DNA of 64,000 nucleotides, taken from positions 208,210 to 272,209 of the forward strand of contig JBEKZP010000001.1 in the NCBI GenBank assembly GCA_049509755.1, given 5' to 3'. The notes under the pieces are model-generated. The model worked only from the letters and a program-made list of their open reading frames with translations. It had not been told where the DNA came from and did no database searches. Origin of the DNA: Terriglobales bacterium. GTDB taxonomy: Bacteria; Acidobacteriota; Terriglobia; Terriglobales; Acidobacteriaceae. Shown here one piece after another: positions 16,292 through 33,594 of the stretch (the stretch's first letter is position 1; every line of letters begins with the position of its first letter). The position numbers and the translations under genes are program-made.

Positions 16292-16326
16292 CAAGTTGTG
16301 ACTTCTGAGTTGTGAGCAAGACAAGA

Positions 16327-16820: not shown

Positions 16821-18200
16821 TCAGCTTCTCCGCACTTGCAGCAGCGCCGCATCGAACTCCGGGACCCTGGCTGCTTCTTCCTCCCAGAACGCTTGCGACT
16901 TCATGCCTTCCAGGTACGAATCGGAATAGCCGAACCTGCTCCAGGTCTCCTGCTTGTAGCGGAAGAGCCGCTCCTTCTCCCGGCGAGGCCGGACATCGAG
17001 AATATCGGCGGAAGAGCCGCCGCGGAAGATGGCCTCGAACGATTCATGGAGCGCCGTTTCGGCCGTCATCGGCTTGCGCTTCGCCAACTCCGAGAGCACC
17101 GATGGGTAGCGATCGAAGCCATCGGTCGCGATGGTCACCACATTGTCCCTGGGCCCGAGATTGAGATGTCGCGCCAGCCGGATTGAGCCCAGGATGTTGC
17201 ACAAGCCGGAAATGCCGAAGAGGCCGTCGAACTCGCGCAGCAATCCCGCGCGCACCTGCAGCCGCTTCTCGAGGAACGCCTGCCGCTGCTGCAACAACTC
17301 GAGCCCGACGACGCAATCGTCATCATGGATCAGCATCACGTAGTCGGTGGTCAGCACGTTGTGAATGAGGGTGACCATTTTGTCGCCGATGCCCTCGATG
17401 CGATGCGTTCCGCGGCCGTTGTTGAACAGCGTGGAGCACTGGCGCGGCTCCGGCGCGCAGATGAGCGCGTCGGGAAATTGCGCCTTGATCTCGTCGCCCG
17501 CGGCCAGCGTTCCCGCCGAGCCCGGAGCTGCGACGAACGCCGCCACCTGTCCGTTCCCGTGCGCACGCGCCGCTTCCAGCGCGCTGCCGCCGGTAACGTG
17601 GCGGTGGAATCGGTAATTCGGCAACAGTTCGAACTGCGCCAGCACCTTGTTGCGCGCGTCCTTCTTGTATTCCTCGGTGCGCTCCAGCACCAGGATGACA
17701 TCGCTCTCCGACCCGGGCGTGAGGTCGAGCTTGCCGCCGTATTGCCGGATTCGCTGGTAGCGCTCGGCGCTCATCTGCTCCGGCATGATGACGATGGCGG
17801 GATAACCCTTGAGCTTGGAGATGTAGGCCACGCCGATACCGAAGTTGCCGGTCGAGGGGCCGATGATGGTGTTCTCTCCCTGATGGATCTCGCCCGCCAG
17901 TTCACCTTCCATCAGGGTCGCGTAGGCCGGGCCGACCTTGTGGCTGCCCGAGGGAAACTCGCGTCCCACGAGCACGACGATGTTGGCCTCCACGCCCGTC
18001 AGTTCCTTCGGAAGCACGACGTGGCGGATGGAATTGTCCGGCGCGCGCCAGGTGATGTTGTACAGGTTGATCGGGTCCAGCTCGTTGGCGCGCGCGGCCA
18101 ATGCCTTCTGGCGAATCGCGGGAGGCAGCGTCTCGGGATGAAGCATTTCAGAGTAGGTGGGGCCGAAGCCGGTTGCGGATTCCAGGCGGGGTGCTGGCAT
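16821..18200 (-). CDS. Fold-type II PLP-dependent enzyme (cysteine synthase/CBS-like, tryptophan synthase beta superfamily). It is the first gene of the purine-catabolism operon and occupies the slot where a YgeX-like PLP enzyme would sit
   Basis: SGSHKVGPAY (PLP-lysine) and PSTGNFGIGVAY glycine-rich loop. The exact subfamily was not resolved. Confidence 0.6.
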   Translation of the reverse strand: MPAPRLESATGFGPTYSEMLHPETLPPAIRQKALAARANELDPINLYNITWRAPDNSIRHVVLPKELTGVEANIVVLVGREFPSGSHKVGPAYATLMEGELAGEIHQGENTIIGPSTGNFGIGVAYISKLKGYPAIVIMPEQMSAERYQRIRQYGGKLDLTPGSESDVILVLERTEEYKKDARNKVLAQFELLPNYRFHRHVTGGSALEAARAHGNGQVAAFVAAPGSAGTLAAGDEIKAQFPDALICAPEPRQCSTLFNNGRGTHRIEGIGDKMVTLIHNVLTTDYVMLIHDDDCVVGLELLQQRQAFLEKRLQVRAGLLREFDGLFGISGLCNILGSIRLARHLNLGPRDNVVTIATDGFDRYPSVLSELAKRKPMTAETALHESFEAIFRGGSSADILDVRPRREKERLFRYKQETWSRFGYSDSYLEGMKSQAFWEEEAARVPEFDAALLQVRRS

Positions 18201-19546
18201 CAGAATCTTCTCCAGAGTTGGCGTGCGCAGGCGGTGGCTTTTTCGGCGACGGCGCGCTCGTCCACGTTGACGAACTGCCGGTCGCGAATGACGAAGCGGC
18301 CGTTCACCACCAGCGAATCCACCGGCGCGTGCGCAATGCCGAACAGCGCGTGGCCGAAGATGTTGTCGCTGGTGAGCGGCGTGGGCGGAAAGTAGTCATA
18401 GAGCACCAGGTCGGCGCGCGCCCCTGCTTCGATGCGTCCGATGTCCAGGTTCCAGACCTTCCGGGCGATGGTGCGATTGTTGAGCAGCGCCAGCGCGTAA
18501 GCTTCCGCGTAGGCAACGCGCGGATCGCCGGCGCGCATTTTCTGGACGTGGAAGGCGGTCTTGAACTCGTCCCACATGCGCGGGCTGTAACCGTCGGAGC
18601 CGAGGCCGACCAGCACGCCGGCTTTCACCATCTCCAGCACGCGTGCCGCTCCCACCGCGTTGTTGCAATTCGATTGCGGGTTGTGAACCACGTTGATCTG
18701 GTGGCGCGCCAGCGCCGCGATGTCGGCGCCGCTTACGTGAATGCAGTGCGCGGCCAGCGCGCGATCGTCGAGTACGCCCAGTTCATGCAGCCGGCGCACC
18801 GGAGATTTCCCGTGCTTCCTGCGGGCATCGTCGTTGTCGCTGCGGTCTTCGGAAACGTGCACGTGGAATCCGGCTTGCAGCGATTCGTTCGCTTCCACCG
18901 AGCGGCGCAGCGTGCGATCGCTCAGGGTGAAAGAAGCGTGCAGGCCGAAGCTGGCGTTCACCAGCCCGTTTGACTTGCGCGCGCGCTCGATGAAGCGGAC
19001 GTTTTCGTCGATTCCTTCCTGCGCGTTCCTCGGGCCGTTGCGGTCGGTGGTTTCGTAGCAGAGCACCCCGCGCAATCCGACCTCGCGAAAGGCACGCTCA
19101 ATCACGTCGAGGCTGCCGCTGACCGCCGATGGACTGGAATGGTGGTCCACCAGCGTGCCCACGCCGCAGCGCGCCGAATCCATCACGCCGACCAGCGCGC
19201 TGTAGTAGATGTCCTGCTGGTTGAGCGCGCGGTCGAGCCGCCACCACAGCTTTTTCAGAATTTCGGGAAAATTCTTCGGCGGCGTGCCCGGCAGCGAGAT
19301 GCCCCGCGCCAGCGTGCTGTAGAGATGGGTGTGGCAGTTGATGAGCGCGGGCATGAGCAGGCGGCCGCGCGCGTCGATCCTTTCCACGGAATCTGCACAC
19401 GCGAGGGCGCCCTTCGACAAGCTCAGGGCAGGCTGTGTGCCACACACTTCGCCAATGCTGCCGTCATCGCGCACCTCGACCGTGCCGCAATCCAGCACGC
19501 GGTTGCGCGAGTCGAGGGTCAGGATGCGGGCGTTTTCGATGATCAT
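18200..19546 (-). CDS. ssnA: SsnA-type amidohydrolase (chlorohydrolase/aminohydrolase family). The start is at MIIENARIL, with an ATGA overlap onto the carbamate kinase stop
   Basis: LINCHTHLYSTLARG...NLWWRLDRAL pattern as in E. coli SsnA. Contains an in-frame copy of the 30-nt element (TQPALSLSKGA). Confidence 0.75.
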   Translation of the reverse strand: MIIENARILTLDSRNRVLDCGTVEVRDDGSIGEVCGTQPALSLSKGALACADSVERIDARGRLLMPALINCHTHLYSTLARGISLPGTPPKNFPEILKKLWWRLDRALNQQDIYYSALVGVMDSARCGVGTLVDHHSSPSAVSGSLDVIERAFREVGLRGVLCYETTDRNGPRNAQEGIDENVRFIERARKSNGLVNASFGLHASFTLSDRTLRRSVEANESLQAGFHVHVSEDRSDNDDARRKHGKSPVRRLHELGVLDDRALAAHCIHVSGADIAALARHQINVVHNPQSNCNNAVGAARVLEMVKAGVLVGLGSDGYSPRMWDEFKTAFHVQKMRAGDPRVAYAEAYALALLNNRTIARKVWNLDIGRIEAGARADLVLYDYFPPTPLTSDNIFGHALFGIAHAPVDSLVVNGRFVIRDRQFVNVDERAVAEKATACARQLWRRF

Positions 19547-20520
19547 GGCGCGTTGAACGCGAGCGAGCGGTTGCCCCACGCGGCCACGATGTGCGTGCCG
19601 GCATTCCCCTCCACCGCTTGGGCAACTTTCTCGGTCGAGGTGATGATGCACTCCTCGCCGCCGTTCTCGATAAAATCAATCGCCGCCTCGATCTTCGGGC
19701 CCATGGAGCCGGACGGAAATTCTCCGGCTTCGAGGTAACGGCGCGCGCACTCGATCGTGATGTTCGATAGCCACTGCTGTTCCGGCTTCTGGTACGCGAT
19801 GGCGACCTGGTCCACCGACGTGACGATGATGAGCCGGTTCGCGCGCACCTGCTTGGCGAGAAGGCAGGAGGCGAGGTCCTTGTCAATGACGCCCTCGACG
19901 CCGACGAGTTTCGGGCCATCCCACGCAACCGCAATTCCGCCGCCGCCGCAAGCGACGACGATGACCCCGGCTTCGAGCATGGCGGCGATCGATTCCTTTT
20001 CCAGGATGTCGAGCGGCCGCGGCGAGGGCACCACGCGCCGCCACCGGCCTGGCTCAATCTCCTTCATGCGCCAGTGCGGCTTATCGACGCGCAGTTTCTC
20101 CAGCTCTTCCGGGGAATGAAACGACCCGACGGGCTTGGAGGGGTGCTCGAAATCAGGATCGTTGCGGTCCACCACCACTTGCGTGATCACCGTCGCACAC
20201 TCGCGGCGGATGCCTTCACGGCGGAACATCTCGTCGGCGACGCGCTGGATCATGTAGCCCATGCCGCCCTGCGAGTCGGAGACGCAGGTGTCCAGCGGCA
20301 GCGGCGGGACGCGGCGCTCGCCTTCCTCGGAACGGATGAGGATATTGCCGATCTGCGGGCCGTTGCCGTGCGTGATGACGATGCGGCGGTCGCTGTGAAA
20401 CAGCGGTACCAGGGGTTCCAGCGTTTCGGCAGTGTGCGCGAACTGCTGCGGAATGGTGCCGCGCTCACCGGGACGCGTGATGGCATTGCCACCGAGCGCG
20501 ATAACCAGGGTTTCCTTCAT
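19543..20520 (-). CDS. Carbamate kinase (YqeA/ArcC family)
   Basis: MKETLVIALGGNAI...VITHGNGPQIGN carbamate kinase N-terminus. Confidence 0.85.
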   Translation of the reverse strand: MKETLVIALGGNAITRPGERGTIPQQFAHTAETLEPLVPLFHSDRRIVITHGNGPQIGNILIRSEEGERRVPPLPLDTCVSDSQGGMGYMIQRVADEMFRREGIRRECATVITQVVVDRNDPDFEHPSKPVGSFHSPEELEKLRVDKPHWRMKEIEPGRWRRVVPSPRPLDILEKESIAAMLEAGVIVVACGGGGIAVAWDGPKLVGVEGVIDKDLASCLLAKQVRANRLIIVTSVDQVAIAYQKPEQQWLSNITIECARRYLEAGEFPSGSMGPKIEAAIDFIENGGEECIITSTEKVAQAVEGNAGTHIVAAWGNRSLAFNAP

Positions 20521-21590
20521 GCGCGTGCGGCCGCGGCCGGCTCCTCTTCGTACTCGATCTCGTGGTCAGCCATGGTCAGCGCCATGATCGATTTGCAGGT
20601 GTGCAGGCGGTTCTCCGCTTCGTCGTAAACCACGGAGTGCGGGCCGTCAATCACTTCGTCGGTGACCTCGTTGCCGCGGTCGGCCGGCAGCGGGTGCATG
20701 TAGAGCACATCGGGCTTGGCGAGCTTGAGCCGGTTGGCGTCGCAGATCCAATGCTTGTACTGGGTGGCGATGCGCAGCGACTCCTGCGGGTTCTGGCCCA
20801 TGGTGTCGAGGCAGCCCCAGCTTTTCGGGATGACGACGTCGGCCGTGCGGAAGGCGTCGTCCATGTCGTTCACGACTTCGAATTTCGTGCCGCAGCGCTG
20901 GGCGTTGTCGCGCGCCGCCTGCATGGTTTCCGGCATGAGGAAATATTCCGGCGGATGGGCCAGCGTCACATCAATGCCGAAGCGCGGCAGCAGCATGATG
21001 AGCCCTTGCGGCACCGAGAGCGGCTTGGCGTAGCTGGGCGCGTACGCCCACGAGACCGCGACCTTCAGCCCGCGCAGGTTTCGTCCGCGCTGTTCGCGCA
21101 TGGTCATCAGGTCGGCCAAAGTCTGGCAGGGATGGTCCACGTCGCACTGCATGTTGATGACCGGCACATCGGCCCAGCGCGCCACTTCGCGCATGTAGGC
21201 GTTGCCCTCGCCGGGGATGAGGTCGTGGCGGATGGCGATGCCGTGACCGTAGCGCGAGAGGATGATGCCGGTGTCCTTCGGGCTTTCGCCGTGCGAGACC
21301 TGCATCACGTCGGCGGTCAGGAAATGCGCGTGGCCGCCGAGCTGCGTGATCCCGGCTTCGAAGGAGTTGCGCGTGCGCGTGGACTTGTCGAAGAACATCA
21401 GGAAGATAGTCTGATCGGGCAGATAGCGGTGCGGAACGCGGCTCTTGAACTTGCGCTTCAGATCGGCCGAGACCGCGAGCAGGGTTTCAATCTGCGCCTC
21501 CGACCATTCCTCGGTGGTGATGTAGTCCTTACCTTTGAACAGCGCCTTATTGAGCAAGGTTGGCCCCCGTGAGTGCCGCGGCATTGGCAT
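20517..21590 (-). CDS. ygeW: YgeW-type knotted carbamoyltransferase (putative oxamate carbamoyltransferase)
   Basis: STRTR, GNAYMREV, SWAYAPSYAKPLSVPQG, TLAHPPEY and MHPLPADRG segments match E. coli YgeW closely. Confidence 0.85.
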   Translation of the reverse strand: MPMPRHSRGPTLLNKALFKGKDYITTEEWSEAQIETLLAVSADLKRKFKSRVPHRYLPDQTIFLMFFDKSTRTRNSFEAGITQLGGHAHFLTADVMQVSHGESPKDTGIILSRYGHGIAIRHDLIPGEGNAYMREVARWADVPVINMQCDVDHPCQTLADLMTMREQRGRNLRGLKVAVSWAYAPSYAKPLSVPQGLIMLLPRFGIDVTLAHPPEYFLMPETMQAARDNAQRCGTKFEVVNDMDDAFRTADVVIPKSWGCLDTMGQNPQESLRIATQYKHWICDANRLKLAKPDVLYMHPLPADRGNEVTDEVIDGPHSVVYDEAENRLHTCKSIMALTMADHEIEYEEEPAAAARA

Positions 21591-23760
21591 AGTGCGCGCG
21601 CCGCGGATTGGAAACTGCGTCCATCAGGAACTTGAGCTGCAAGTAAGGCAGCATGTCCACAGTATGCGGCGCGGCGCAGCCCGGTTTCAGTGACCAGGCT
21701 AGGACCGCGTGATCGGTAGTCCTGATTTGGATTTCCACGCTGCCGTCGTCGAAGACGGCGCGCTGCTGCTGCGCGTCCGACGTGAGCCGGTACGGCTTGC
21801 CGGCGATGGTGCCGTGAATGGTGTTGCCGCCGCTGGAAAAAGCCAGGAAGAAGCCATTGCGGCCGGCAAACTTCTGGTACGACTCCAGGCTGCCGAAGAA
21901 GCGCGGCTTCTCGATTTGCGGGCCGCCGTCCTCGGGGCAGAAGACATCGCAATTACCGCAGTCGTTGCAGGCGTCGGCGTAGTTGGCGAACTGATGCGCG
22001 CGCGCCACCTTGAATGTGCCGCCGGGCACGGGGCGCGCTTCGCCGCCCGCAAGCAACTCGTAATTGCTGTAGGCGAAGTCGGCGGCGCCGGACTCGTAGA
22101 CGAAATTGGCGTCGTTGGGGCAGACCGGAACGCACTTGTCGCAACTGATGCAGTCGTAGAGCCACAGCTTGGAGCCGATCTTGCGCGGCGCCGCCTTGTT
22201 CTTTTTCCACCGATAGCGCGGGTCGGCGGTGGTGCGCTCCACGATCGAAGGCGTGTTGAGCACGCCCGCGGCTTCCACCAGCGTGCGCTCCAGCCCGACA
22301 AGTTCGTCCTGGAGGGCGTCGGCGAGCGAATGTGGAAGCTGCGGGATACGGCCGGGAGTGAATTCGCGCTGGATATCGGCGCAGACCTCATTCAGCGCCG
22401 CGCCCGGAGTCGCGAGCCAGGCTTTCAGCCGCGCGGCGACAACGGCTTCGATGGCGGAGGCGGCGCCGGGAAAACGCTTTCCGAGCGCCGTTACCACGGA
22501 GTTGATGGCCACCTCGCCCTGGCCGGCGTAGCGGACGACAAAGTCATGAATCCGAGGCGCGCCAAGCTCGCGCATTTTCGCGCCCAGGTTTTCCAGGTAC
22601 CTGGGAAGCCGCGCGTAGCCGCCGGGGCGCAGCAGGTCGGTGCAGGTGGTGACGGGCACGAAATTCATGGCAACGGCGTTGCACACGTTGTGCTGGTCGA
22701 GGCCGGCGGAGAACGAAATGGGATACGCGGCGCCCATGTGCTCACGGAATTTCTTCACCAGGTTGAGCGTGACCACGTGCAGCGGCGGGCCGGACATGTA
22801 CATGACTTCGTCGGTGAACATCCGGCGGTGGTTCTTCACCACCAGCGTGTTGCTGAACTTGACGGCCAGGCGCTTGCCGCGGAAGCGCGCGACCCCGGCC
22901 AGGCGCGGCAGCATGGTGAGCGCGTCGGAAAACTGAAGGTCGTGCTCGAAGGCGTCGGCGGCGACCTGGATATCGCGATAGCCGAGCACGTCGTGCAGCA
23001 CATGTTTCACCTGCTCGAAGCCGAGCAGCGTGGGGTTGAGCTTGATGCAGACGTGCACATCCATCTCGGCGAGCAGAAAGGCGACGATGCCCTCGATCTC
23101 GTGCGCCGGGCAACCGTGGAAGGTGGAGAGCGTGATGGTGTCGCTGAGGCGCGTGGGGAAGGGCAGGTCGCGATAACGCGCCCACGGGCCGGTGAGGGTG
23201 GCGCGCAGTTCGTCAACGATGGCGCGCGCGTCCTTCATGCTCTCGATCCACTGGCGCACGCGCGGCGAGCGGATGCCCTCCAGGCTGTAGCCCACGCTCA
23301 TGTCGTAAATCGTGTCGGTGAAGGGGCCGGTGAATTCCTCGCCCAGCAGGCGCGAGGCTTTCAGGATCTCGATGAACATCATCGCGCCAACGTACTCGCG
23401 CAACGATTGTTCCAGCTTCAGCTCCTGCGACCACTCGACGTTGTACCCGACGTTGGTGGCGTCAATGCAGGGGCGCGGGATTTTGAGCTCGTCCATGATC
23501 TGCACCGTCTTGAGCTCGATGATGCGCGAGCCGGCGAGCCAGGAGAGAACGATGTTCTGCAACAGTTGATCGTGCGGGCCGGCGGCGGGCCCCACGGGAT
23601 TGGCGGCGCGCCGGCCATGAAACGTAACGGAAGTATCCAGGCCGCTCAGGCCGCGAAAGACCTTCGCCTTCGGCAGGTCGAAGATTTTTCCCTCGCGCTC
23701 ATATTCGAGAAATGCGCGCGTGAGCTGCAGCGGGAGCGGGATGGGGATGAGCTCGGACAT
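21547..23760 (-). CDS. ygfK: YgfK-family Fe-S oxidoreductase: an N-terminal YgfK/DHOD-like TIM-barrel region plus a C-terminal 2x[4Fe-4S] ferredoxin domain. The central FAD/NAD(P)-binding domain present in E. coli YgfK appears to be absent. Start at MSELIP; the upstream 23 codons are encoded by the hairpin repeat
   Basis: PVGPAAGPHDQLLQNIVLSWLAGSRIIELKTVQ, TLSTFHGCPAHEIE, IKLNPTLLGF, MYMSGPPLH and TDLLRPGGYARL match the E. coli YgfK N-terminal region. The ferredoxin cysteines are CISCDKCVPVCPNDAN and CNDCGNCDVFCPEDGG. It is 738 aa versus ~1030 aa in E. coli. Confidence 0.7.
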   Translation of the reverse strand: MSELIPIPLPLQLTRAFLEYEREGKIFDLPKAKVFRGLSGLDTSVTFHGRRAANPVGPAAGPHDQLLQNIVLSWLAGSRIIELKTVQIMDELKIPRPCIDATNVGYNVEWSQELKLEQSLREYVGAMMFIEILKASRLLGEEFTGPFTDTIYDMSVGYSLEGIRSPRVRQWIESMKDARAIVDELRATLTGPWARYRDLPFPTRLSDTITLSTFHGCPAHEIEGIVAFLLAEMDVHVCIKLNPTLLGFEQVKHVLHDVLGYRDIQVAADAFEHDLQFSDALTMLPRLAGVARFRGKRLAVKFSNTLVVKNHRRMFTDEVMYMSGPPLHVVTLNLVKKFREHMGAAYPISFSAGLDQHNVCNAVAMNFVPVTTCTDLLRPGGYARLPRYLENLGAKMRELGAPRIHDFVVRYAGQGEVAINSVVTALGKRFPGAASAIEAVVAARLKAWLATPGAALNEVCADIQREFTPGRIPQLPHSLADALQDELVGLERTLVEAAGVLNTPSIVERTTADPRYRWKKNKAAPRKIGSKLWLYDCISCDKCVPVCPNDANFVYESGAADFAYSNYELLAGGEARPVPGGTFKVARAHQFANYADACNDCGNCDVFCPEDGGPQIEKPRFFGSLESYQKFAGRNGFFLAFSSGGNTIHGTIAGKPYRLTSDAQQQRAVFDDGSVEIQIRTTDHAVLAWSLKPGCAAPHTVDMLPYLQLKFLMDAVSNPRRAHYANAAALTGANLAQ

Positions 23761-23865
23761 TGGGTAACTTGGTAATTGGGTAATTTCGTAATTTTGTAAT
23801 TTTCGAAACGCGCGCACGCAGCGCAACAAATTACCAAATTACCAATTTACGAAATTACAAAATTC
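23761..23865. repeat. AT-rich GTAATTT-family hairpin between ygfK-like and ygeY
   Basis: tgggtaacttggtaattgggtaatttcgtaattttgtaattttc ... caaattaccaaattaccaatttacgaaattacaaaattc. Confidence 0.8.
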
Positions 23866-23866
23866 T

Positions 23867-25117
23867 TTAACGGGCGCCCGCCTTCGCTGTCTGCTCGCGC
23901 TCCAGCGTGTGCACGAACACCAGCGGAAACGCGGCGTAGAACTGCGCCGCCTGCACCAGGTGGTCGATCGAGACACGTTCGGTGACGGCGTGCGCGTCCA
24001 CTTCGTTGCCCGGACCAAAGCCGACCGTGGGCACGCCGCACATTCCCATTGAGCCCACGCCGTTGGTGCTGAATACCCATTTGTCCACGACGGGCGCGCG
24101 GCCATGCAGCGCCTGGTACGTCTCCACCGCCGACTGCACCAGCGGATGATCCTCTTCGACCAGCCACGTCGGATAGTACTTCTCCATCGGATACACCACC
24201 CCGGTGTAGCTCGGCACCTCGTATTTCAGGATCTCGATCTCGGCGTCGCGTGCGCCGGAGAGGGCGCGAACTTCGGCAACCGCGCTCTCTTTCGTGTCGC
24301 CGGTGGTGAGCCGGCGGTCCAGGTGGATGGAGCACGCGCCCGGAACCGCGCACAGCGAGGGCGAAAGCGAGCGAATCTGCGTCACCGTAATCGTCCCCTT
24401 GCCCAGAAACTTGTCGTCGCGCAGCCGGGTGTTGAGTTGCTCGACTTCGCGCAGCAGCGTGGACATCTTGTAGATCGGGTTGTCGCCGCGCTCGGGCGCG
24501 CTGGCATGGCAGGAGCGCCCGCGGATGTGGACTTCAATCTCCATGCGCCCGCGCTGCCCGCGATAAACCTGCAGGTTCGTGGGCTCGGTGATGAGGACGC
24601 AATCGGGCTTGATGCCGTCTTCGCGCAGGATGTAGAGCCACGCCAAGCCGTCGCAATCCTCTTCCTGCACACTGCCGACGCACCACAGCGTGTAATCGCC
24701 GGCCAGTCCGAGTTCCTTGATCAGCTTGGCGCCGTAAACCATGCTGGCCATGCCGCAACGCTGGTCGCAGGCGCCGCGGCCATACACGTAGCCGTCCTCC
24801 ACCTTGCCCTGGTACGGGTCCCACTTCCATTCCTTCAGGTCGCCGACGCCGACCGTGTCGGTGTGCGAGTCCATCATGATGACGCGCTTGCCGCTCCCGA
24901 TGCGGCCGAGGATGTTGCCCATTTTGTCGATGCGGATTTCGTCGAAGCCGACCTGTTCCATTTCCCGCTTGATGCGCTGGATGACGGGCCCTTCCTGCGA
25001 ACTTTCGGCGGGAATGGCGATCAGGTCGCGCAGGAAGCGGACCATGGGCGGTTCGTACTTTTTGGCGCCGGCGGCAATGGCCGCGCGCTGCTGGCGAATG
25101 TTATCGAATGGGTTCAT
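23867..25117 (-). CDS. ygeY: YgeY-type M20 family peptidase/amidohydrolase
   Basis: MVRFLRDLIAIPAESSQEGPVIQRIKREMEQVGFDEIRIDKMGN...QEEDCDGLAWLYI...YRGQRGRMEIEV match E. coli YgeY. Confidence 0.85.
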   Translation of the reverse strand: MNPFDNIRQQRAAIAAGAKKYEPPMVRFLRDLIAIPAESSQEGPVIQRIKREMEQVGFDEIRIDKMGNILGRIGSGKRVIMMDSHTDTVGVGDLKEWKWDPYQGKVEDGYVYGRGACDQRCGMASMVYGAKLIKELGLAGDYTLWCVGSVQEEDCDGLAWLYILREDGIKPDCVLITEPTNLQVYRGQRGRMEIEVHIRGRSCHASAPERGDNPIYKMSTLLREVEQLNTRLRDDKFLGKGTITVTQIRSLSPSLCAVPGACSIHLDRRLTTGDTKESAVAEVRALSGARDAEIEILKYEVPSYTGVVYPMEKYYPTWLVEEDHPLVQSAVETYQALHGRAPVVDKWVFSTNGVGSMGMCGVPTVGFGPGNEVDAHAVTERVSIDHLVQAAQFYAAFPLVFVHTLEREQTAKAGAR

Positions 25118-25120
25118 GTC

Positions 25121-28000
25121 CTAGTCCGAAGCAACGGCCTTGCGCACGCCGCCGGCCCGCGTGGTGCGCGGTTTCTGTTTCCCTTGCTCGTGGATCGCCT
25201 TGAGCACCATCTCCGGCCGGATGGGCAACTGCCGGAAGCGGATTCCGATGGCGTGGTAAATCGCGTTGGCGATTGCCGGCGCCGGGCCGTTGATCGGTAC
25301 CTCGGCGATGGACTTCGCGCCGTAGGGCCCGAGCGGCTCCTCGGTCTCCACCAGGATGGTGGTGAGCTTGGGCATGTCTTTCGCCGAAAAAACTTTGTAG
25401 TCGAGAAAATTCGGGTTGATCATGCGGCCGGTTTCATCGAGCAGCATTTCCTCGGTGAGCGCGTAGCCCAACCCTTGCGCCACCGCGCCTTCCGCTTGTC
25501 CTTCGGCCGCCATGGGATTGATGGCAACGCCGCAATCAACCGCGGTGACCAGTTCCAGGACGCGCACCTTGCCGGTTTCGGTGTCCACCTCGACTTCGGC
25601 GAAGGTGGCGCAGAACGGCGGCGGGCTGTCGGTGTTCCAGTGCGAGGCGCCTTCCATGATCTGGACTTTGTCCTTGTACATGGCGTGGCGCGCGACATCG
25701 GCCATGCTGACGGCCTTGCGGCACTCGCAGACGGTGAACGCTTCGTTGTTGCCGAGGTTGACCTTTTCGGGCGTGACCTCGAGCAGGCGCGCGGCGACAT
25801 CGAGAATCTGCGCGCGAACTTTTTCCGCCGCTTTCTTCACCGCGCCGCCGGAAATGATAGTCGTGCTGGAGGCGTAAGCGCCGACGTCGAAGGGCGTGAA
25901 GTCGGTGTCGCCGGAGCAGACGATCATCTTGTCGAGCGTGACGCCCAGGGTTTCGGCGGCGATCTGCGCCAATACGGTGTCGGCGCCCGTGCCAAGATCG
26001 GCCGCCCCGACCTGCAGGTTGAAGGAGCCGTCTTCGTTGATCTTCAGCAGCGCGGCGGCCCAGTCCACGCCGGCGATGCCGCTGCCCTGGATGGAACACG
26101 CCACGCCGACGCCCCGGCGCAGGTGCGTCGGCTTGCCCGGCAGCGCAGTCCGTTTCCGCTCCCAATCAATCGCCTTGGCGCCGCGCTCCAGGCACCCGGG
26201 CATGCCGCAAGTCCGGATGTGGCGCGGCAGTCCTTTGCGTCCTTCGCCGAGTTCGGCGGAGAGTGCGTCGATGTCGCCCTCGCGGATCAGGTTGCGCCGC
26301 CGCAGTTCGATGGGATCCAGGCCGAGCTCGTGCGCGATCTCGTCAATCACGCTCTCCTGCGCGAAGAAGCCTTGCGGGCAGCCGTATCCGCGGAACGCGC
26401 CCGCGACCGGGCAGTTGGTGTACACCACGGTGCAGTCGAACTTCATGTTGGGCGCACGGTAGAGCGGCAGCACCTTGCTGCCGGTATTGCCCTGCACCGT
26501 CGCGGAGTGGCTGCCGTAGGCGCCGGTGGTTGCGAGCACCGACATCTGGTTGGCCACGATGGTGCCGTCGCGCTTGGCGCCGATCTTCACGCGCAAAATT
26601 TGCGGATGCCGGCTGCGCGCCATGTAGAACTCTTCCTCGCGCGTGTACTCGATCTTGACCGGACGCCGCGCGGCCAGCGCGAGCGCGCCGGTGATGTCCT
26701 CGAGCAGCATTTCCTGTTTGCCGCCGAAGCCGCCGCCGATGCGCGGCTTGATCAGCCGGACCTTCTGCACCGGCAGTTGCAGGATCATCGCCACCTGCCG
26801 GCGCGAGTGGAACGGCACCTGCGTGCTGCTGCGGATGGTGAGGCGCCCATCTTCGTCGAGCCAGGCGATGGAGACGTGCGGCTCCATCATCGCGTGCTGC
26901 TGGCGGTGGGTGCGGAATTCGCGCTCGATGACCACGTCGGCCTGGCGGAATGCCTCGTCAACGTTGCCCAGTTCTTTCTTGATGAACGCGGCGACGTTGT
27001 GCTTGGCATCGTGAATGCCGGTGGAGTCGGGTTCGTCATGGATGACCGGCGCGCCCGGCTTGGTGGCCTGCTCCATGTCGAGGATGGCGGGCAGGACCTC
27101 GTAATCCACCTTGATCAGGCGCAGCGCTTCTTCGGCGATGGCGCGCGATTCGGCGGCAACGGCCGCCACGCGGTCGCCGACGAAACGGACTTTGGAATCG
27201 AGCAAGTAAGTATCGTAAGGCGATGGTTCCGGCCAGCTCTGGCCGGCGGTGGTATGCGGCACCCGCGGAACGTCCTTGTAGGTAAGGACTGCGTGCACGC
27301 CGGGCAACGCGCGGGCCTTGCTGACGTCGATGCGCTTGATGCGCGCGTGCGCGTGCGGGCTGGGCAGGATTTTGCCGATCAGCATGCCCGGCATGTGGAC
27401 GTCGTCGGTAAAGCACGGCCGCCCGGTGACCAGCTTCACGCCATCGGGTTTCTGCAAGGAGTGCCCGACGACCAGGTGACGGCCCGCGGCGGGAGTTTCC
27501 TCGCAATGCCTGGGGCCGTTCTGCGAGACGGCCAGGACAGCCTCCACCGGCTTCTTGAAACCGGTGCAGCGGCAGAAATTGCCGGAGAGCATGTCGCGAA
27601 CTTCCTCTTCGCCGGCGTGCGGATGCTCGCGCAGCAGGGCCTTGGTGTTGAGGATCATGCCGGGTGTGCAGAAGCCGCACTGCGCCGCGCCGTGGTCGAG
27701 AAACGCCTGCTGCACGGGATCGAGCGTATCGCCGTGCGCGATCGCTTCGACGGTGGTGATCTCGCAGCCGTTCGCCTGGGCGGCAAAAACGACGCACGAG
27801 TTCACCGGCTTTTCGTTCAGCAGCACGGTGCAGCAGCCGCACTCGCCGGTTTCGCAGCCGCGCTTCACGCCGAAATAACCTTCGCGACGGAGCACATCCA
27901 GCAGCAGGTCGCCCGGAGCGATGGTCCACTCGCGGGTTTCGCCGTTGATGCGAACCTTCAGCGCAATCGAGTTCTTGCGGTGTCCGTTGCGGCCGCTCAT
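25121..28000 (-). CDS. xdhD: XdhD-type fused molybdenum hydroxylase: an N-terminal [2Fe-2S] ferredoxin-like domain plus the molybdopterin-binding large subunit
   Basis: CETGECGCCTV and GAAQCGFCTPGM [2Fe-2S] motifs followed by ~800 aa of aldehyde oxidase/xanthine dehydrogenase MoCo-binding domains. There is an ATGA overlap with ygfM. Confidence 0.85.
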   Translation of the reverse strand: MSGRNGHRKNSIALKVRINGETREWTIAPGDLLLDVLRREGYFGVKRGCETGECGCCTVLLNEKPVNSCVVFAAQANGCEITTVEAIAHGDTLDPVQQAFLDHGAAQCGFCTPGMILNTKALLREHPHAGEEEVRDMLSGNFCRCTGFKKPVEAVLAVSQNGPRHCEETPAAGRHLVVGHSLQKPDGVKLVTGRPCFTDDVHMPGMLIGKILPSPHAHARIKRIDVSKARALPGVHAVLTYKDVPRVPHTTAGQSWPEPSPYDTYLLDSKVRFVGDRVAAVAAESRAIAEEALRLIKVDYEVLPAILDMEQATKPGAPVIHDEPDSTGIHDAKHNVAAFIKKELGNVDEAFRQADVVIEREFRTHRQQHAMMEPHVSIAWLDEDGRLTIRSSTQVPFHSRRQVAMILQLPVQKVRLIKPRIGGGFGGKQEMLLEDITGALALAARRPVKIEYTREEEFYMARSRHPQILRVKIGAKRDGTIVANQMSVLATTGAYGSHSATVQGNTGSKVLPLYRAPNMKFDCTVVYTNCPVAGAFRGYGCPQGFFAQESVIDEIAHELGLDPIELRRRNLIREGDIDALSAELGEGRKGLPRHIRTCGMPGCLERGAKAIDWERKRTALPGKPTHLRRGVGVACSIQGSGIAGVDWAAALLKINEDGSFNLQVGAADLGTGADTVLAQIAAETLGVTLDKMIVCSGDTDFTPFDVGAYASSTTIISGGAVKKAAEKVRAQILDVAARLLEVTPEKVNLGNNEAFTVCECRKAVSMADVARHAMYKDKVQIMEGASHWNTDSPPPFCATFAEVEVDTETGKVRVLELVTAVDCGVAINPMAAEGQAEGAVAQGLGYALTEEMLLDETGRMINPNFLDYKVFSAKDMPKLTTILVETEEPLGPYGAKSIAEVPINGPAPAIANAIYHAIGIRFRQLPIRPEMVLKAIHEQGKQKPRTTRAGGVRKAVASD

Positions 28001-28929
28001 AGGGTGTACTCCGCTTGCTGGGCGCACGCGAGGAGAGCGCGGCGGGCCAGCACCTGGCTGATCTCGCGGCGGTACTCCGCCGAGGCGCGCTGATCGGTAA
28101 TCGGCTGGACTTCGCGCGCAACGGATTCGGCGGCGCGATCGATCAGATCGCGGGTGAGGGCTTTGTCGACGAGCAGCGCTTCAGCCTGATCCGCGCGCAT
28201 GGGGGCGGGGGCCACAGCGCCGAGCGCGAGGCGTGCCCACGCGCACGTGCCATCGCGCGCGATGCCCAGGCCGGCGGCAACATTGACCACGGCGATGTCG
28301 GTTTCGGTCCGCCCGAACTTTTGGAACGACCACCCGGCCCGGCCTTTGTTCCTGGGGACGAAGACCTGCACCAGCAGTCCACCGTTGATGCGCCGCTTCT
28401 GCGGCAAAGCGAAAAATTCGCGCAGCGTGATGCGGCGGCGGCCGTTCTTGGTTTGCACGACGACCGATGCGTCCATGGTGAGCAGCGGTGTCGCGGTATC
28501 GGCCGCGGGGGAACCGTTGGCCAGATTTCCGCCGATGGTTGCCAGGTTGCGAATCTGGATGGACCCGCAGGTGGCGGCGGCACGGGAAAGAATGCCGCCG
28601 GCGAGTCCACGTACGATCGGCGAATGTTCCAGCGCCGACATGGTGCAGGCGGCCCCGATGTCGCATCCGTTGCCGTCGCGGCGGATGTAGTCGAGGCCGA
28701 GATGCTTGACGTCAACCAGGAACCGGACGGAGCGGTCTCGCAGCAGCGCAAGATCGGTGCCGCCGGCAAGAACGCGGCCCGGGCCGCTGTGCAGCAGGCG
28801 CACCGCCTCGCGGACGCTCCTCGGCTGGTAGAAAGCTTGAATGTGGTCGAACACTGCGTTCTCCAATCTCCGCGTGAGGGGGAGCCCGGGTGAGAACTGC
28901 AAAATTGGTGAGCTAAGACAAACGGTCAA
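27997..28929 (-). CDS. ygfM: FAD-binding subunit of the molybdenum hydroxylase (YgfM / CoxM family). The start is uncertain
   Basis: AGGTDLALL...IRNLATIGGNLANGSPAADTATPLL FAD-binding motifs of the CO dehydrogenase flavoprotein family. Confidence 0.8.
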   Translation of the reverse strand: MTVCLSSPILQFSPGLPLTRRLENAVFDHIQAFYQPRSVREAVRLLHSGPGRVLAGGTDLALLRDRSVRFLVDVKHLGLDYIRRDGNGCDIGAACTMSALEHSPIVRGLAGGILSRAAATCGSIQIRNLATIGGNLANGSPAADTATPLLTMDASVVVQTKNGRRRITLREFFALPQKRRINGGLLVQVFVPRNKGRAGWSFQKFGRTETDIAVVNVAAGLGIARDGTCAWARLALGAVAPAPMRADQAEALLVDKALTRDLIDRAAESVAREVQPITDQRASAEYRREISQVLARRALLACAQQAEYTL

Positions 28930-28941
28930 TATATCAAAATA

Positions 28942-30324
28942 TCAAAGCAGCGGAGGGCGGCCAACGATTTTTGCGGCGATGCGGCGGTGACGGTGCAGGA
29001 TCGGGACAAGCGAAACCCCTTGCAGGACGCCGCCTTCCACCACCACCCGTCCCTCGATGATTAAGCTGGTTACGCGGGTGGGCGCGCATAGCAGCAGGGC
29101 GGAGAGCGCGTCCTCGGCGCCGCTGTAGCCGATGTCGCGCAAATCGAAAAGCGCGATGTCGGCGCGCTTGCCCACCGCGATGCTGCCGATGTCGTCGCGG
29201 CCAAGACAGCGCGCGCCCTCCAGGGTGGCCATGCGCAGGGCGTCGTGCACCGTGATGGCGGAAGCGCCGCGCGCCAGCCGGTTCAACAGCAATGCCTGGC
29301 GCGCCTCGGCCAGCATGTTGGAGCTGTCGTTGGACGCGCTGCCGTCCACGCCCAGCCCGACCGGCGATCCGGCGCGCTGCAACTTTTCCACCGGACAGAT
29401 CCCCGAGGCCAGGCGCATGTTCGAGGTCGGACAGTGCGCCACACCGACCCCCGCGCGGCCAAGGCGGCCACATTCGCCGGCGTTGAAATAAATTCCATGT
29501 GCTACCCAGGTGTCTTCGTGCAGCCAGCCGCAGTCGCGGAAAAAGTCCAGCGGGCGCTTGCGGAAGCACTTGCGGCAGTACTCTTCCTCGTCACGCGTCT
29601 CCGCCAGATGGGTGTGCAGGCGGATGCCGTGCCGACGGGCGAGCGCGGCGGTCTGGCGCATCAGTTCCGCGTCCACCGTGAAGGGAGAACACGGCGCGAG
29701 CGCAATGCGCAGCATCGAGCCCGGGCGCGGGTCGTGAAATTTGCGAATCACGCGTTCGGAGTCTTCCAGGATTTCGTCCGTGGTCTGCACGACAGAGTCG
29801 GGCGGCAGTCCACCGCGGCTGACGCCCACGTTCATACTGCCGCGCGTAGGATGAAAACGGATGCCGAGGCGGCGAGCCGCTCCGATTTCGGCGTCAATCA
29901 GCTTCTTCTGCCCGCGCGGAAAAAGATAATGATGATCGGTTGTCGTGGTGCAACCGCTGAGCATCAGTTCCGCCATGCCGACCAGCGCCGCCGTGTGCAC
30001 CGCTTCCTCGTCAATGCGCGCCCAGCGCGGATAAAGCGTGGTCAGCCAATCGAACAATTCGGCATTCGCGGCGGCGGTGCAGGCGCGCGTCAGCGTCTGA
30101 AACAAATGGTGATGGGTGTTGATGAGCCCCGGCACGGCGACGGCGTAGGGCGCGCGAATCGTCTTTTCAGCACGCAGGCCGGGCGGAACACGCGTGCCCA
30201 CTTTCTTGATTTCGCCGTTTTCGGCATAGACGAACGCCCCGTGCAGCAGCGCTTCTCCCTGCATCGAGACCAGGGTGTGAATGTCGCGGATGAGCAGCGA
30301 ATCGGGCGTGGGCTTCGGGCTCAT
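28942..30324 (-). CDS. Amidohydrolase of the chlorohydrolase/deaminase family (guanine or 8-oxoguanine deaminase-like). The ORF track extends to 31017 but the true start is MSPKPT at 30324
   Basis: PGLINTHHHLFQT metal-binding motif and a ~460 aa length. The upstream 230 in-frame codons are Arg/Gly junk that overlap the next gene. Confidence 0.75.
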   Translation of the reverse strand: MSPKPTPDSLLIRDIHTLVSMQGEALLHGAFVYAENGEIKKVGTRVPPGLRAEKTIRAPYAVAVPGLINTHHHLFQTLTRACTAAANAELFDWLTTLYPRWARIDEEAVHTAALVGMAELMLSGCTTTTDHHYLFPRGQKKLIDAEIGAARRLGIRFHPTRGSMNVGVSRGGLPPDSVVQTTDEILEDSERVIRKFHDPRPGSMLRIALAPCSPFTVDAELMRQTAALARRHGIRLHTHLAETRDEEEYCRKCFRKRPLDFFRDCGWLHEDTWVAHGIYFNAGECGRLGRAGVGVAHCPTSNMRLASGICPVEKLQRAGSPVGLGVDGSASNDSSNMLAEARQALLLNRLARGASAITVHDALRMATLEGARCLGRDDIGSIAVGKRADIALFDLRDIGYSGAEDALSALLLCAPTRVTSLIIEGRVVVEGGVLQGVSLVPILHRHRRIAAKIVGRPPLL

Positions 30325-31592
30325 GAGGTGGCGGCGGATTTTGCCGAGGGAATCAGGCCCTGACGCGCCAGGATCTCCTCCAGGCCGCTGCCGTCGGGCG
30401 GAACTTCGAATGGCTTGCTGACCGCCTGCTGTGCGGCGCGAATATCCTTCAGCCCACTGCCGGTCACGACTGCCAGTGCGCGAGATTTGCGCGGCACCAG
30501 GCCCTCGCTCAGCGCCCGCTTCAATCCGGCGACGGCGGTGGCGGCCGCGGGTTCGGCAAACACTCCGGTCAGATGGCCGGTGTAGCTCATGGCATCCAGG
30601 ATTTCGTCGTCGGCGACATTGATCATGGCGCCGCCGGACTCCTCGATCGCCAGCACCGCTTTTTTCCAATTGCGCGGCACTCCGACGGCGATGCTGTCGG
30701 CGATGGTGTTCGGCTCCATGGGCTTCATCGGACTGCGACTGCGAAACGCTTCGGTGACCGGAGCCGCGCCCGCCGCCTGGACTCCGAGCATGCGCGGGGT
30801 GCGCGCGATCAAGCCGATGGTTTTCAATTCGCGAAACGCTTTCCATGCGCCGGCGATGGTGCAGCCGTCGCCCACCGAGATGGCAATCCAGTCCGGCGGA
30901 TTCCACACGAGCTGTTCCGCGATCTCCAGCCCGACCGTCTTCTTGCCTTCCACCAGGTAAGGATTGACGGCGCAATTTCGGTTGTACCAGCCCCAGCGCT
31001 CGCACGATTGCTGGCACAGTTCGTAGGCCTGCTCGTAGCTGCCGCCAACGCGCAGCACGGTGGCGCCGAAGATGAGCAGTTGAGTGACCTTGGGCTCGGG
31101 CGCGCGCTGCGGCACGAAAATCGCGCTGCGCAATCCCATGCTCGCCGCCATGCCCGCCAGCGACGAGGCGGCATTGCCGGTGCTGGCGCAGGCGATGATC
31201 TTGCGGCGCTTCTCCACCGCCTTCACCACGCCGAGCGAACTGGCGCGGTCTTTCAGCGAGCCGGTGGGATTGCGGCCGTCGTCCTTGATGAACAGTTCAC
31301 GAACTCCCAAATGGCGCGCCAGCCGGCCGGCTGCGACGATCGGTGTCCATCCCACCGACAGCGATGGCAACTGCGCGCGCTCAGCAATGGGCAGCAACTC
31401 GCGGTAACGCCAGTGGCTGTGATCGGTGCGCGCCGCGAGCTTGCGGCGGGTGAGCGCCTTCCGAATGGCGCGGTAATCGTATTGCACATCGAGAATGCCG
31501 GTGATGCCGCACTGCGGACAGGTGTATCCGACGCGGGGAGAAAATTGCGAGCGGCAAAAAACGCAGACCAGCCCTGTGACGAAGTTCGGCAT
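30321..31592 (-). CDS. Threonine-synthase-like PLP enzyme with an N-terminal Cys4 zinc ribbon. Start at Met25
   Basis: CVFCRSQF...CPQCG zinc ribbon, the TGSLKDRA PLP-lysine motif and ACASTGNAASSLAGMAA. Confidence 0.7.
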   Translation of the reverse strand: MPNFVTGLVCVFCRSQFSPRVGYTCPQCGITGILDVQYDYRAIRKALTRRKLAARTDHSHWRYRELLPIAERAQLPSLSVGWTPIVAAGRLARHLGVRELFIKDDGRNPTGSLKDRASSLGVVKAVEKRRKIIACASTGNAASSLAGMAASMGLRSAIFVPQRAPEPKVTQLLIFGATVLRVGGSYEQAYELCQQSCERWGWYNRNCAVNPYLVEGKKTVGLEIAEQLVWNPPDWIAISVGDGCTIAGAWKAFRELKTIGLIARTPRMLGVQAAGAAPVTEAFRSRSPMKPMEPNTIADSIAVGVPRNWKKAVLAIEESGGAMINVADDEILDAMSYTGHLTGVFAEPAAATAVAGLKRALSEGLVPRKSRALAVVTGSGLKDIRAAQQAVSKPFEVPPDGSGLEEILARQGLIPSAKSAATS

Positions 31593-31830
31593 GGGTGAGG
31601 ATAGTGTGCGCTGCCAATATACAGCGGAATGGGGGGAGTACCGAGTGCCGAGCGGTGGTTTCAAAAGTCGGCCAGGGGGTCGGAGGTTAATCCCTCAGGG
31701 GCTAAAGCCCACTATTCTTGCGGCCTCGAGCGGCACGGCTGAAGCCGTGCCCTTCCCAAAAACCGATTATTGAAACCAGTTCTAGTACCGAGTACCGAGC
31801 TGTGCGGATGACGGGCGGAATTGGAGAGCG

Positions 31831-32454: not shown

Positions 32455-32473
32455 AGGTTCTTGCTCCGGTCGT

Positions 32474-33592: not shown

Positions 33593-33594
33593 CA

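Follow-up and report, generated by a model that had tools for sequence, protein, structure and literature searches.

A predicted urate- and purine-degrading operon of the 2,8-dioxopurine type in Terriglobales, with related clusters in uncultured soil, peat, and freshwater bacteria

Escherichia coli and Clostridium sporogenes degrade urate by a reductive route in which the molybdenum enzyme XdhD-YgfM, or DOPDH, converts urate to 2,8-dioxopurine, YgfK (DOPOR) reduces 2,8-dioxopurine, and SsnA together with HyuA opens the rings to give 2,3-diureidopropionate; YgeW and YqeA then yield carbamoyl phosphate and from it ATP, YgeY yields 2,3-diaminopropionate, and YgeX converts this compound to pyruvate and ammonia (10.1101/2025.05.19.654654; 10.1101/2025.04.24.650524). 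Both DOPDH and xanthine dehydrogenase (XDH) of C. sporogenes require SelD, according to the same 2025 preprints. The pathway was described in 2025 as an anaerobic adaptation of gut bacteria. Here we describe a run of ten minus-strand genes, at positions 16821 to 31592 of a 64,000-nucleotide stretch of DNA from a Terriglobales bacterium (GenBank assembly GCA_049509755.1, contig JBEKZP010000001.1, positions 208,210 to 272,209 of the forward strand; hereafter the window), which encodes homologs of most of these proteins. Our results suggest, with a probability that we place at roughly 0.68, that this operon degrades urate or purines via a 2,8-dioxopurine-type reductive route in an environmental version that we call type A, a distinct form conserved in abundant uncultured lineages of soil, peat, and freshwater.

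The ten open reading frames (ORFs) are intact and co-directional, and each has a G+C content at third codon positions of 0.78 to 0.86. Their successive junctions measure -4, +39, -4, +3, +106, -44, -4, -4, and -1 nt, with ATGA start/stop overlaps at four of them, one of which joins g9 to g10. (The genes are designated g10 to g1 in the order of transcription, and a further gene downstream is designated g0; see Table 1.) A first-pass annotation, made from the sequence without database searches, had proposed ten consecutive minus-strand genes with overlapping or abutting boundaries, and its coordinates proved exact at both ends, the ATG of g10 and the stop codon of g1. It had also likened the run to the ygeW-xdhD region of E. 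coli. With families called by the curated cut-offs of NCBIfam, by Pfam domains, and by BLAST identity to the proteins of E. coli K-12, this likeness was borne out gene for gene, and all E. coli pathway proteins except HyuA and YgeX have counterparts at 26 to 55% identity.

Four genes passed curated cut-offs, and the names SsnA, YgeY, and carbamate kinase given in the first-pass annotation are thereby secured. The SsnA protein g2 scored 515 on NF005540 (cut-off, 444) and 506 on TIGR03314 (cut-off, 455.5) and is 39% identical to E. coli SsnA; the YgeY protein g6 scored 582 on TIGR03526 (cut-off, 321.5) and is 55% identical to E. coli YgeY; and the carbamate kinase g3 scored 358.7 on TIGR00746 (cut-off, 358.25) and 340 on NF009007 (cut-off, 266) and is 41% identical to E. 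coli YqeA. The fourth, g9, had been described as a second COG0402 amidohydrolase; that is correct and can now be made specific, as the protein scored 638 on the 8-oxoguanine deaminase model NF006055 (cut-off, 532) and matched PDB entries 3HPA at 454 bits and 7WW2, an 8-oxoguanine deaminase, at 434 bits. The product of 8-oxoguanine deaminase is urate. We also considered g9 as a substitute for HyuA and rejected this as the default, given its high score as an 8-oxoguanine deaminase and its co-occurrence with a genuine HyuA in one related locus, L042 (related loci are designated by L numbers).

The carbamoyltransferase g4 lies under every NCBIfam cut-off, with 252 on the ornithine carbamoyltransferase (OTC) model (cut-off, 306) and 235 and 221 on the YgeW models (cut-offs, 453 and 500). 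It is 38% identical to E. coli YgeW, shares with it the motifs SWAYAPSYAKPLSVPQG and KSWG, and differs from it chiefly by three deletions, which correspond to insertions in YgeW. In the alignment, the YgeW signature SWAYxPSYxKPLSVPQG is present, and KSWG stands at the position of the SMG ornithine loop of OTCs. An identity as an ordinary OTC, which the first-pass annotation had itself raised as a possible reassignment, was rejected because the SMG loop is absent.

A pathway can be proposed from these assignments. 8-Oxoguanine would be deaminated by g9 to urate as a feeder step, and urate would be dehydroxylated at position 6 by the FAD/2Fe-2S/molybdenum enzyme g8-g7 to give 2,8-dioxopurine, which the FMN/4Fe-4S protein g5 would reduce. 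SsnA (g2) would open the pyrimidine ring, and the second ring would be opened by a hydantoinase presumably encoded elsewhere in the genome and, in some relatives, encoded inside the cluster. One ureido group would be phosphorolyzed by the YgeW-like g4 to carbamoyl phosphate, from which carbamate kinase (g3) would form ATP, and the other would be hydrolyzed by YgeY (g6), leaving 2,3-diaminopropionate. Pyruvate would finally arise by ammonia elimination catalyzed by g1 in the place of YgeX, and g10 may assist or be an alternative. This scheme is built on homology, family membership, domain content, diagnostic residues, and conserved synteny, and every substrate and product in it is predicted; from the same kinds of evidence we infer what donates electrons to g5 and what g1, g10, g9, and g0 do. 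The first-pass annotation had likewise assigned the operon a purine or urate role with ATP formed from carbamoyl phosphate, which fits the biochemistry reported in 2025 for E. coli and Clostridium.

The cluster is widely conserved. A scan of a genome collection found the short form of YgfK represented by g5 in 265 species-level genomes, from which we retrieved 80 species-level loci, all from metagenome-assembled genomes (MAGs), whose genes were assigned by BLAST comparison with the proteins of the window and of E. coli. Among them, 58 carry a type-A cluster with the same genes in the same order, namely, [ThrC-like][8-oxoguanine deaminase] FAD-(FeS)-Mo-YgeY-short YgfK-carbamoyltransferase-[carbamate kinase]-SsnA-CysK-like pyridoxal phosphate (PLP) enzyme; they belong to at least three phyla and include Terriglobia, Bryobacteraceae, Solibacter, Gemmatimonadales, Eremiobacteraceae, and Acidiferrales. 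Counting only type-A loci whose contigs permit a call, the CysK-like g1 is present in 43 of 43, carbamate kinase in 28 of 49, g9 in 31 of 40, g10 in 28 of 40 (g9 and g10 together in 26 of 40), a HyuA appended downstream in 3 of 39, and the Rid protein g0 in 2 of 39. The entire gene set co-varies with SsnA as one block. The suggestion of a "variant pathway" made in the first-pass annotation was right, and many MAGs conserve the variant. Four JGI metagenomes and one SRA assembly contain contigs on which the YgeY protein is identical and its neighbors are nearly so, and the best genome match of g5 is a Terriglobia MAG, at 95% protein identity.

Looser relatives of the cluster occur in Bacteroidota, Ignavibacteriota, Planctomycetota, and Chloroflexota. 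A type-B arrangement, found in Ignavibacteriota, Bacteroidota, and Planctomycetia, combines the ThrC-like enzyme, SsnA, and short YgfK with a distant molybdenum enzyme, and most type-B loci also carry a g1-like PLP enzyme and YgeY. Three of them (L069, L073, and L075) encode a true YgeW, 63 to 65% identical to that of E. coli; the protein of L069 scored 668 bits. A nucleobase transporter of the Xan_ur_permease family directly follows the g1 homolog in L006/L021 (11414-12727, plus strand; closed Acidobacteriota chromosome OY969886.1); it is 36% identical to E. coli GhxQ, and that cluster encodes neither carbamate kinase nor an 8-oxoguanine deaminase. Bog, fen, palsa, peat (SPRUCE), groundwater, and lake samples are the source of many of the related MAGs. 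Because of these habitats, the contrast with an "aerobic-soil lineage" that the first-pass annotation had drawn is weakened and the label itself is doubtful; there, a route for urate that needs no oxygen would be no paradox.

The molybdenum hydroxylase combines features of two families. Its large subunit g7 is 37% identical to E. coli XdhD over the full length; its best NCBIfam match is XdhA, at 765 (cut-off, 780), and it scored 712 on the XdhD family TIGR03313 (cut-off, 1102). All Fe-S cysteines are present, forming two intact 2Fe-2S motifs, and the Fe-S part, which is fused to the molybdenum subunit in the window, is a separate gene in 17 loci. (In E. coli xdhD [L009, 26317-29187], the aligned N-terminal "Fe-S" domain has the cysteines of neither 2Fe-2S motif.) The XdhD-specific loop LGEG(R/K) of g7 holds the equivalent of E606 of E. 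coli XdhD, a residue tied to the formation of 2,8-dioxopurine by the Zhang laboratory (10.1101/2025.05.19.654654); all 50 of the type-A proteins compared have this Glu loop, and E. coli XdhA does not. Like XDHs, g7 also has the Arg of the FRGYG motif, where E. coli XdhD has Gln, and this Arg is conserved in all 52 homologs compared. Since an XdhD-type Glu loop and an XDH-type Arg are both present, g7 appears from these residues to be a hybrid of the two signatures. The FAD subunit g8 scored 179 on XdhB (cut-off, 310) and 74 on YgfM (cut-off, 241), with identities of 31% to E. coli XdhB and 26% to E. coli YgfM, and by these measures it is nearer XdhB. The first-pass names YgeW, XdhD, and YgfM call for correction, as all three proteins fail the family cut-offs. 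A CO dehydrogenase, the other reassignment raised at that stage, was also rejected, as the corresponding models scored 362 to 410 against cut-offs of 950 to 991.

These features bear on an alternative reading in which g8-g7 is an ordinary, urate-making XDH and the other genes act on a reductive pyrimidine- or hydantoin-type route or on another N-heterocycle. The nearness of g7 to XdhA and of g8 to XdhB, the invariant XDH-type Arg, and the resemblance of the g5 barrel to those of dihydropyrimidine dehydrogenase (DPD) and dihydroorotate dehydrogenase (DHODH) would all be expected if this were so. It is hard to reconcile with a Glu loop that is specific to XdhD and invariant in type A, with SsnA and YgeY proteins that pass equivalog-level cut-offs and whose only defined role is in the urate pathway, and with the co-variation of the gene set with SsnA. 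We regard this alternative as improbable.

The reductase g5 is a shortened YgfK. It matched TIGR03315 only over profile positions 5 to 396 of 1012, at 398 bits (cut-off, 835), and BLAST aligned it to residues 7 to 405 and to residues 905 to 978, the C-terminal Fe-S region, of E. coli YgfK, with 40% identity in the N-terminal part. The NADPH/FAD (GltD-like) module of about 500 residues is missing. The first-pass description as a "YgfK-like Fe-S protein" calls for correction in that the form is a short one without this module. In an AlphaFold (AF2) model with a predicted local distance difference test score (pLDDT) of 79.6, the N-terminal 400 residues adopt an FMN-barrel fold, for which Foldseek returned DHODH and DPD at a probability of 1.0; the modeled barrel matches what would be expected for reductive dearomatization of the YgfK/PydA type. 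No GltD-like, YgfT, or YgfS protein that might bring in electrons as a separate gene product was found in the window or related loci, and a search for fusions of short YgfK with other cluster proteins was likewise negative. In three loci from Blastocatellia-type and groundwater MAGs (L048, 9989-13481; L049; and L052, 9974-13501), short YgfK and the ThrC-like enzyme form an isolated abutting pair surrounded by unrelated genes, with no SsnA, molybdenum enzyme, or YgeY within 10 kb. This suggests that the pair has a function of its own.

Two PLP enzymes lie at the ends of the run. Neither the window nor any of 88 related loci gave a YgeX ortholog, the only matches being to the generic PALP fold at 20 to 26% identity. 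The CysK-like g1 retains the PLP Lys, the Asn loop STGNF, and the Gly-rich loop GSAGT, is 73 to 95% identical across Terriglobia and Bryobacteraceae, and follows SsnA in every one of the 43 callable type-A loci. As YgeX is absent everywhere and g1 is universal, g1 is the best candidate for the terminal lyase; that it acts at the level of diaminopropionate as the replacement of YgeX is a tentative assignment, for which we would give somewhat less than even odds.

The ThrC-like g10 passed two threonine synthase models, NF006050 at 305 (cut-off, 303) and a second at 216 (cut-off, 167), and matched the threonine synthase of Aquifex at 231 bits. When 34 members of the family, drawn from seven or more phyla, were aligned with the threonine synthases of Thermus and Aquifex (two solved structures), the PLP Lys and STGN proved to be kept, and T88, S155, R160, and N188 of the Thermus enzyme to be invariantly replaced by A, A or G, L, and D, respectively. 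We take these four residues to be the ones that hold the substrate phosphate in the Thermus enzyme, a role for which a literature search gave no confirmation. The first-pass name of a ThrC-like enzyme calls for the qualification that this protein has lost residues conserved in true threonine synthases; g10 represents a distinct subfamily and is not a canonical threonine synthase. A protein database search with g10 returned only relatives at least 73% identical, all called "threonine synthase."

Public names would make g10 a "threonine synthase" and g1 a "cysteine synthase," which raises the question of whether the two are housekeeping enzymes beside a purine cluster or whether the genes are juxtaposed by chance. 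The two threonine synthase models passed by g10 agree with its public name. g1 scored 138 on the CysK model TIGR01136 (cut-off, 344) and 135 on TIGR01139 (cut-off, 351), and the four substituted positions of g10, the invariable place of g1 after SsnA, the start/stop overlaps within the operon, and the occurrence of g10-like genes beside SsnA or short YgfK in six phyla (Acidobacteriota, Ignavibacteriota, Bacteroidota, Planctomycetota, Myxococcota, and Chloroflexota) speak against a housekeeping or chance origin, which is strongly disfavored and, in our estimate, very improbable.

The first-pass annotation had attributed the operon to a selenium-dependent system, and for this the analysis gave no support. 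If the molybdenum enzyme were a labile-selenium hydroxylase that needs SelD, YqeB, and YqeC like its counterparts in E. coli and Clostridium, the tags "selenium metabolism-linked" that NCBIfam attaches to YgeY and SsnA would be explained, and there would be precedent in DOPDH of C. sporogenes, which is inactive without SelD, and in the presence of YqeBC and SelD in all gut strains with the cluster. The Ktedonobacterales locus L063 also has, right at its edge, a 46-residue fragment 52% identical to YqeB. E. coli keeps yqeB, yqeC, and mocA inside its cluster, whereas tblastn found no selD or yqeC in the window or in the 10-kb flanks on either side of the 88 related loci, and for yqeB only weak matches of the XdhC family besides the L063 fragment. 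In four Gemmatimonadales clusters (L033, 15984-17069; L035; L036, 15842-17029; and L038), the cluster is followed by a maturation factor that scored on XdhC-family models alone (124 to 130 bits on NF045664; cut-off, 350) and did not match the YqeB family; the "YqeB-like" BLAST matches in this order were accordingly rejected as YqeB and are XdhC-family factors. Finally, g7 and g8 stand no farther from the sulfur-type XdhA and XdhB than from XdhD and YgfM. Selenium dependence of the cluster is thus unsupported, the evidence against it in type A being circumstantial, and we consider it unlikely. A MocA-like cytidylyltransferase follows YgeY in L069 and L075, which are from Bacteroidota and Ignavibacteriota.

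Several points weigh against the proposed 2,8-dioxopurine route. The proteins g7, g8, g4, and g5 all lie under the equivalog cut-offs of the E. coli families. g5 has no reductant module, and none was found by tblastn as a separate gene in the window or related loci. The operon has two PLP enzymes where one would do, and the three isolated g5/g10 pairs in Blastocatellia MAGs hint at a function of g10 outside the scheme. Because g7 keeps the XDH-type Arg that E. coli XdhD has lost, it could, to judge from this residue, be an XDH or also be one. The Rid-family protein g0 is not a canonical RidA, with 69 on TIGR00004 against a cut-off of 106.25; by eye, it has Thr (PATS for PARS) at the position of what we take to be the catalytic Arg of RidA. 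A partnership of g0 with the PLP lyases in the manner of RidA was considered and given less weight, since the protein failed the RidA model and only the two closest relatives retain the gene. Finally, no hydantoinase was found in the window by tblastn, which agrees with the first-pass annotation in detecting no HyuA, YgeX, YqeB, YqeC, or SelD there. In two type-A loci, L042 and L083, and in the Ktedonobacterales locus L063, a D-hydantoinase that passes TIGR02033 extends the cluster, and HyuA-like tblastn matches lie near the clusters of L061, L041, and, in part, L036. Because genuine D-hydantoinases adjoin the cluster in some relatives, the simplest reading is that HyuA is encoded elsewhere and that the step is not bypassed.

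A more far-reaching possibility is that the type-A cluster is a self-contained, redox-balanced machine for opening the purine ring, with a bifunctional hybrid molybdenum enzyme. This enzyme would both hydroxylate hypoxanthine or xanthine and dehydroxylate urate at C6, and the electrons from hydroxylation would pass along the Fe-S/FAD chain directly to short YgfK, so that, on paper, hypoxanthine could be converted to dihydro-2,8-dioxopurine without an external reductant. The ThrC-like and CysK-like enzymes would then act on the C3 amino acid by chemistry other than that of YgeX, such as beta-replacement or elimination on ureido-alanine, or as D- and L-specific lyases. We think it quite unlikely that the system works in this way.

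The transcription unit is larger than the first-pass annotation had stated. Its ten genes stand, and g0, which begins 80 nt beyond the ten-gene run, and a hairpin directly after it are to be added; for this reason the unit probably comprises eleven genes and reaches to about position 16326 (Table 1). The hairpin is GC-rich, has a T-containing tail, and is the best terminator-like hairpin of the region. In a scan of 15.5 to 32.6 kb, terminator counts did not exceed those of shuffled controls, and only this hairpin is cited as a terminator, because of its position. A sigma-70 promoter scan of the same interval gave no consensus match, and Rfam searches found no riboswitch or leader 5' of the operon (gathering threshold for the whole window; E value of 1 or less for the leader). 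A TATATT box in the leader is conserved in L010, L012, and L040; it lies 24 to 29 nt 5' of the first ATG, after the repeat CTCGG(C/T)ACTCGGTACT, with sites at 31614-31652 and 31784-31799 on the minus strand. In loci of Bryobacteraceae and Solibacter (L044, L055, L065, L066, L068, L071, L076, and L078), a pattern TGTAACC-N5-TGTAACC-TTGC-TATATT precedes the FAD gene. The leader repeat and the TATATT box could be the operator and -10 element for some regulator, judging from their arrangement.

Table 1. Features of the operon region, with positions in the 64,000-nucleotide window
Feature	Position	Strand	Family, domains, or structure
g10, ThrC-like PLP enzyme, 423 aa	30321..31592	-	PF00291; N-terminal CxxC...CPxCG zinc ribbon
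g9, 8-oxoguanine deaminase-family amidohydrolase, 460 aa	28942..30324	-	NF006055
g8, FAD-binding subunit of molybdenum hydroxylase, about 289 to 310 aa, start uncertain	27997..28902	-	PF00941 and PF03450
g7, fused 2x[2Fe-2S] and molybdopterin subunit, 959 aa	25121..28000	-	Pfam Fer2, Fer2_2, Ald_Xan_dh_C, MoCoBD_1/2
g6, YgeY-family M20 hydrolase (decarbamoylase), 416 aa	23867..25117	-	TIGR03526
g5, short YgfK, 737 aa	21547..23760	-	Partial TIGR03315; FMN barrel, 2x[4Fe-4S], C-terminal beta domain
g4, YgeW-related short carbamoyltransferase, 346 to 357 aa	20517..21590	-	YgeW motifs, 38% identity to E. coli YgeW
g3, carbamate kinase, 325 aa	19543..20520	-	TIGR00746, NF009007
g2, SsnA amidohydrolase, 448 aa	18200..19546	-	NF005540, TIGR03314
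g1, CysK-like fold-type II PLP enzyme, 459 aa, N- and C-terminal extensions	16821..18200	-	PF00291
g0, Rid-family (YjgF/L-PSP) protein, 128 aa; possibly last operon gene	16354..16740	-	PF01042
Terminator-like hairpin directly 3' of g0	16326..16350	-	Stem of 10 pairs, 7 G-C; then CTTGTCTTGC
Candidate promoter/operator	31614..31652	-	Repeat CTCGGCACTCGGTACT then GCTGTATATTGG, 22 to 60 nt 5' of g10 ATG

Elsewhere in the window, whose G+C content is about 0.63, the Pfam-annotated ORFs (most of the large ones, not all) include no transporter, regulator, molybdenum cofactor, or selenium gene, and the genes on either side of the operon are housekeeping or unrelated ones. Directly 5' of the operon (31831-37110, minus strand) are genes for a YceI-like protein, a flavoprotein of the geranylgeranyl reductase family, a type III polyketide synthase (DpgA-like, at 195 bits and below the cut-off), a tetratricopeptide repeat (TPR) protein, and a class III aminotransferase; the neighbors are the same in L001 to L004, and these genes could form a small cluster of the alkylresorcinol or phenolic lipid type. 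The downstream flank (11759-15349, minus strand) holds a heme run consisting of a protoporphyrinogen oxidase-like (hemY-type) gene and genes for ferrochelatase (hemH) and uroporphyrinogen decarboxylase (hemE). At 42089-48051 (minus strand), a restriction endonuclease of the BPTD_3080 family (1029 bits against a cut-off of 800) lies beside a 924-aa N6/N4 DNA methylase, and the G+C content falls from about 0.63 in the rest of the window to 0.57 to 0.58; the region is probably a restriction-modification island gained by horizontal transfer. An Acido-Lenti-1 RNA motif (RF01687; 54 bits against a gathering score of 37) is found at 9625-9670 (plus strand) within a 2-kb stretch of lower G+C content (7.7-9.9 kb) with no convincing ORF, and a tRNA-Gln(TTG) gene at 1195-1268 (minus strand) adjoins the gene for phosphoribosyl pyrophosphate (PRPP) synthetase. 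The Acido-Lenti-1 motif, taken as a taxonomic hint, and the Terriglobia match of g5 support well an origin of the window in Acidobacteriota.

What we describe is probably a form of a known pathway in which the parts for the reductase, carbamoyltransferase, and lyase steps are non-orthologous or remodeled. Neither of the 2025 preprints mentions Acidobacteria or ThrC-like or CysK-like enzymes, the accessible part of the supplementary files of the Dodd laboratory's preprint (10.1101/2025.04.24.650524) has no entries for Acidobacteriota, Terriglobia, or Gemmatimonadota, and a full-text literature search found no other description of the variant. The MAG screen in that preprint called for at least four of seven proteins, with cut-offs of 80% coverage for YgfK, 63% for YgeW, 50% for YgeX, and 46% for XdhAC (10.1101/2025.04.24.650524). 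The type-A variant would mostly fail these identity and coverage cut-offs. In the neighborhood analysis of the Zhang laboratory, "YgeX" was scored by PF00291 (10.1101/2025.05.19.654654); as PF00291 also captures g1 and g10, such scoring would not tell them apart. If the proposed route is correct, it would provide oxygen-independent recycling of urate and purine nitrogen in soils and peat, would give functions to families now named "putative selenate reductase," "cysteine synthase," and "threonine synthase," and would offer parts for engineering urate-degrading strains, namely, a reductase free of the NADPH domain, a compact carbamoyltransferase, and a molybdenum enzyme that may be selenium-free.

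Among known systems, the E. coli K-12 genes ygeW-ygeX-ygeY-hyuA-yqeA...ygfK-ssnA-ygfM-xdhD (Li et al. 2025, Liu et al. 2025) provide the closest comparison, as the window encodes homologs of XdhD, the FAD subunit, the FMN and Fe-S parts of YgfK, SsnA, YgeW, YqeA, and YgeY. The logic would be the same in both, with dehydroxylation by a molybdenum enzyme, reduction by a flavin enzyme, ring hydrolysis, ATP from carbamoyl phosphate, and PLP-dependent release of pyruvate. In contrast to E. coli, the window is without HyuA, YgeX, YqeB, YqeC, MocA, YgeV, and a transporter, its YgfK is without the NADPH/FAD module, and its carbamoyltransferase is without the three YgeW insertions, whereas its molybdenum subunit has intact 2Fe-2S cysteines and the XDH-type Arg, and its FAD subunit is XdhB-like. 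The window adds the CysK-like and ThrC-like PLP enzymes, the 8-oxoguanine deaminase, and the Rid protein, and its genes form one tight operon, whereas those of E. coli are spread over several transcription units.

The variant in Clostridioides difficile and C. sporogenes is similar in that its 2,8-dioxopurine reductase, which is UacX or YgfK, can likewise be without an NAD(P)H/FAD domain of its own (UacX), which implies an external electron donor; UacX, however, is a homolog of PydA (PF01180) and not a truncated YgfK. C. difficile has the hydrolase UacY in place of YgeW and carbamate kinase and has no FAD subunit (XdhAC), whereas the window keeps all three. The clostridial enzymes have been shown to be selenium-dependent. 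A Chloroflexota variant with an F420-dependent, luciferase-like reductase (Li et al. 2025, from bioinformatics) is a further case of an environmental lineage in which the reductase step has been exchanged. The Ktedonobacterales loci L063 and L064 carry short YgfK and not the F420 enzyme, together with HyuA, a g4-type carbamoyltransferase, and the ThrC-like enzyme. Finally, the DPD and PydA-PydB-PydC pathways of pyrimidine degradation resemble the type-A cluster in using an FMN TIM barrel with 4Fe-4S centers on a uracil-like ring, followed by an amidohydrolase and decarbamoylation. DPD differs in having its own NADPH/FAD domain and pyrimidine substrates and in operating without a molybdenum enzyme, carbamoyltransferase, kinase, or PLP lyase.

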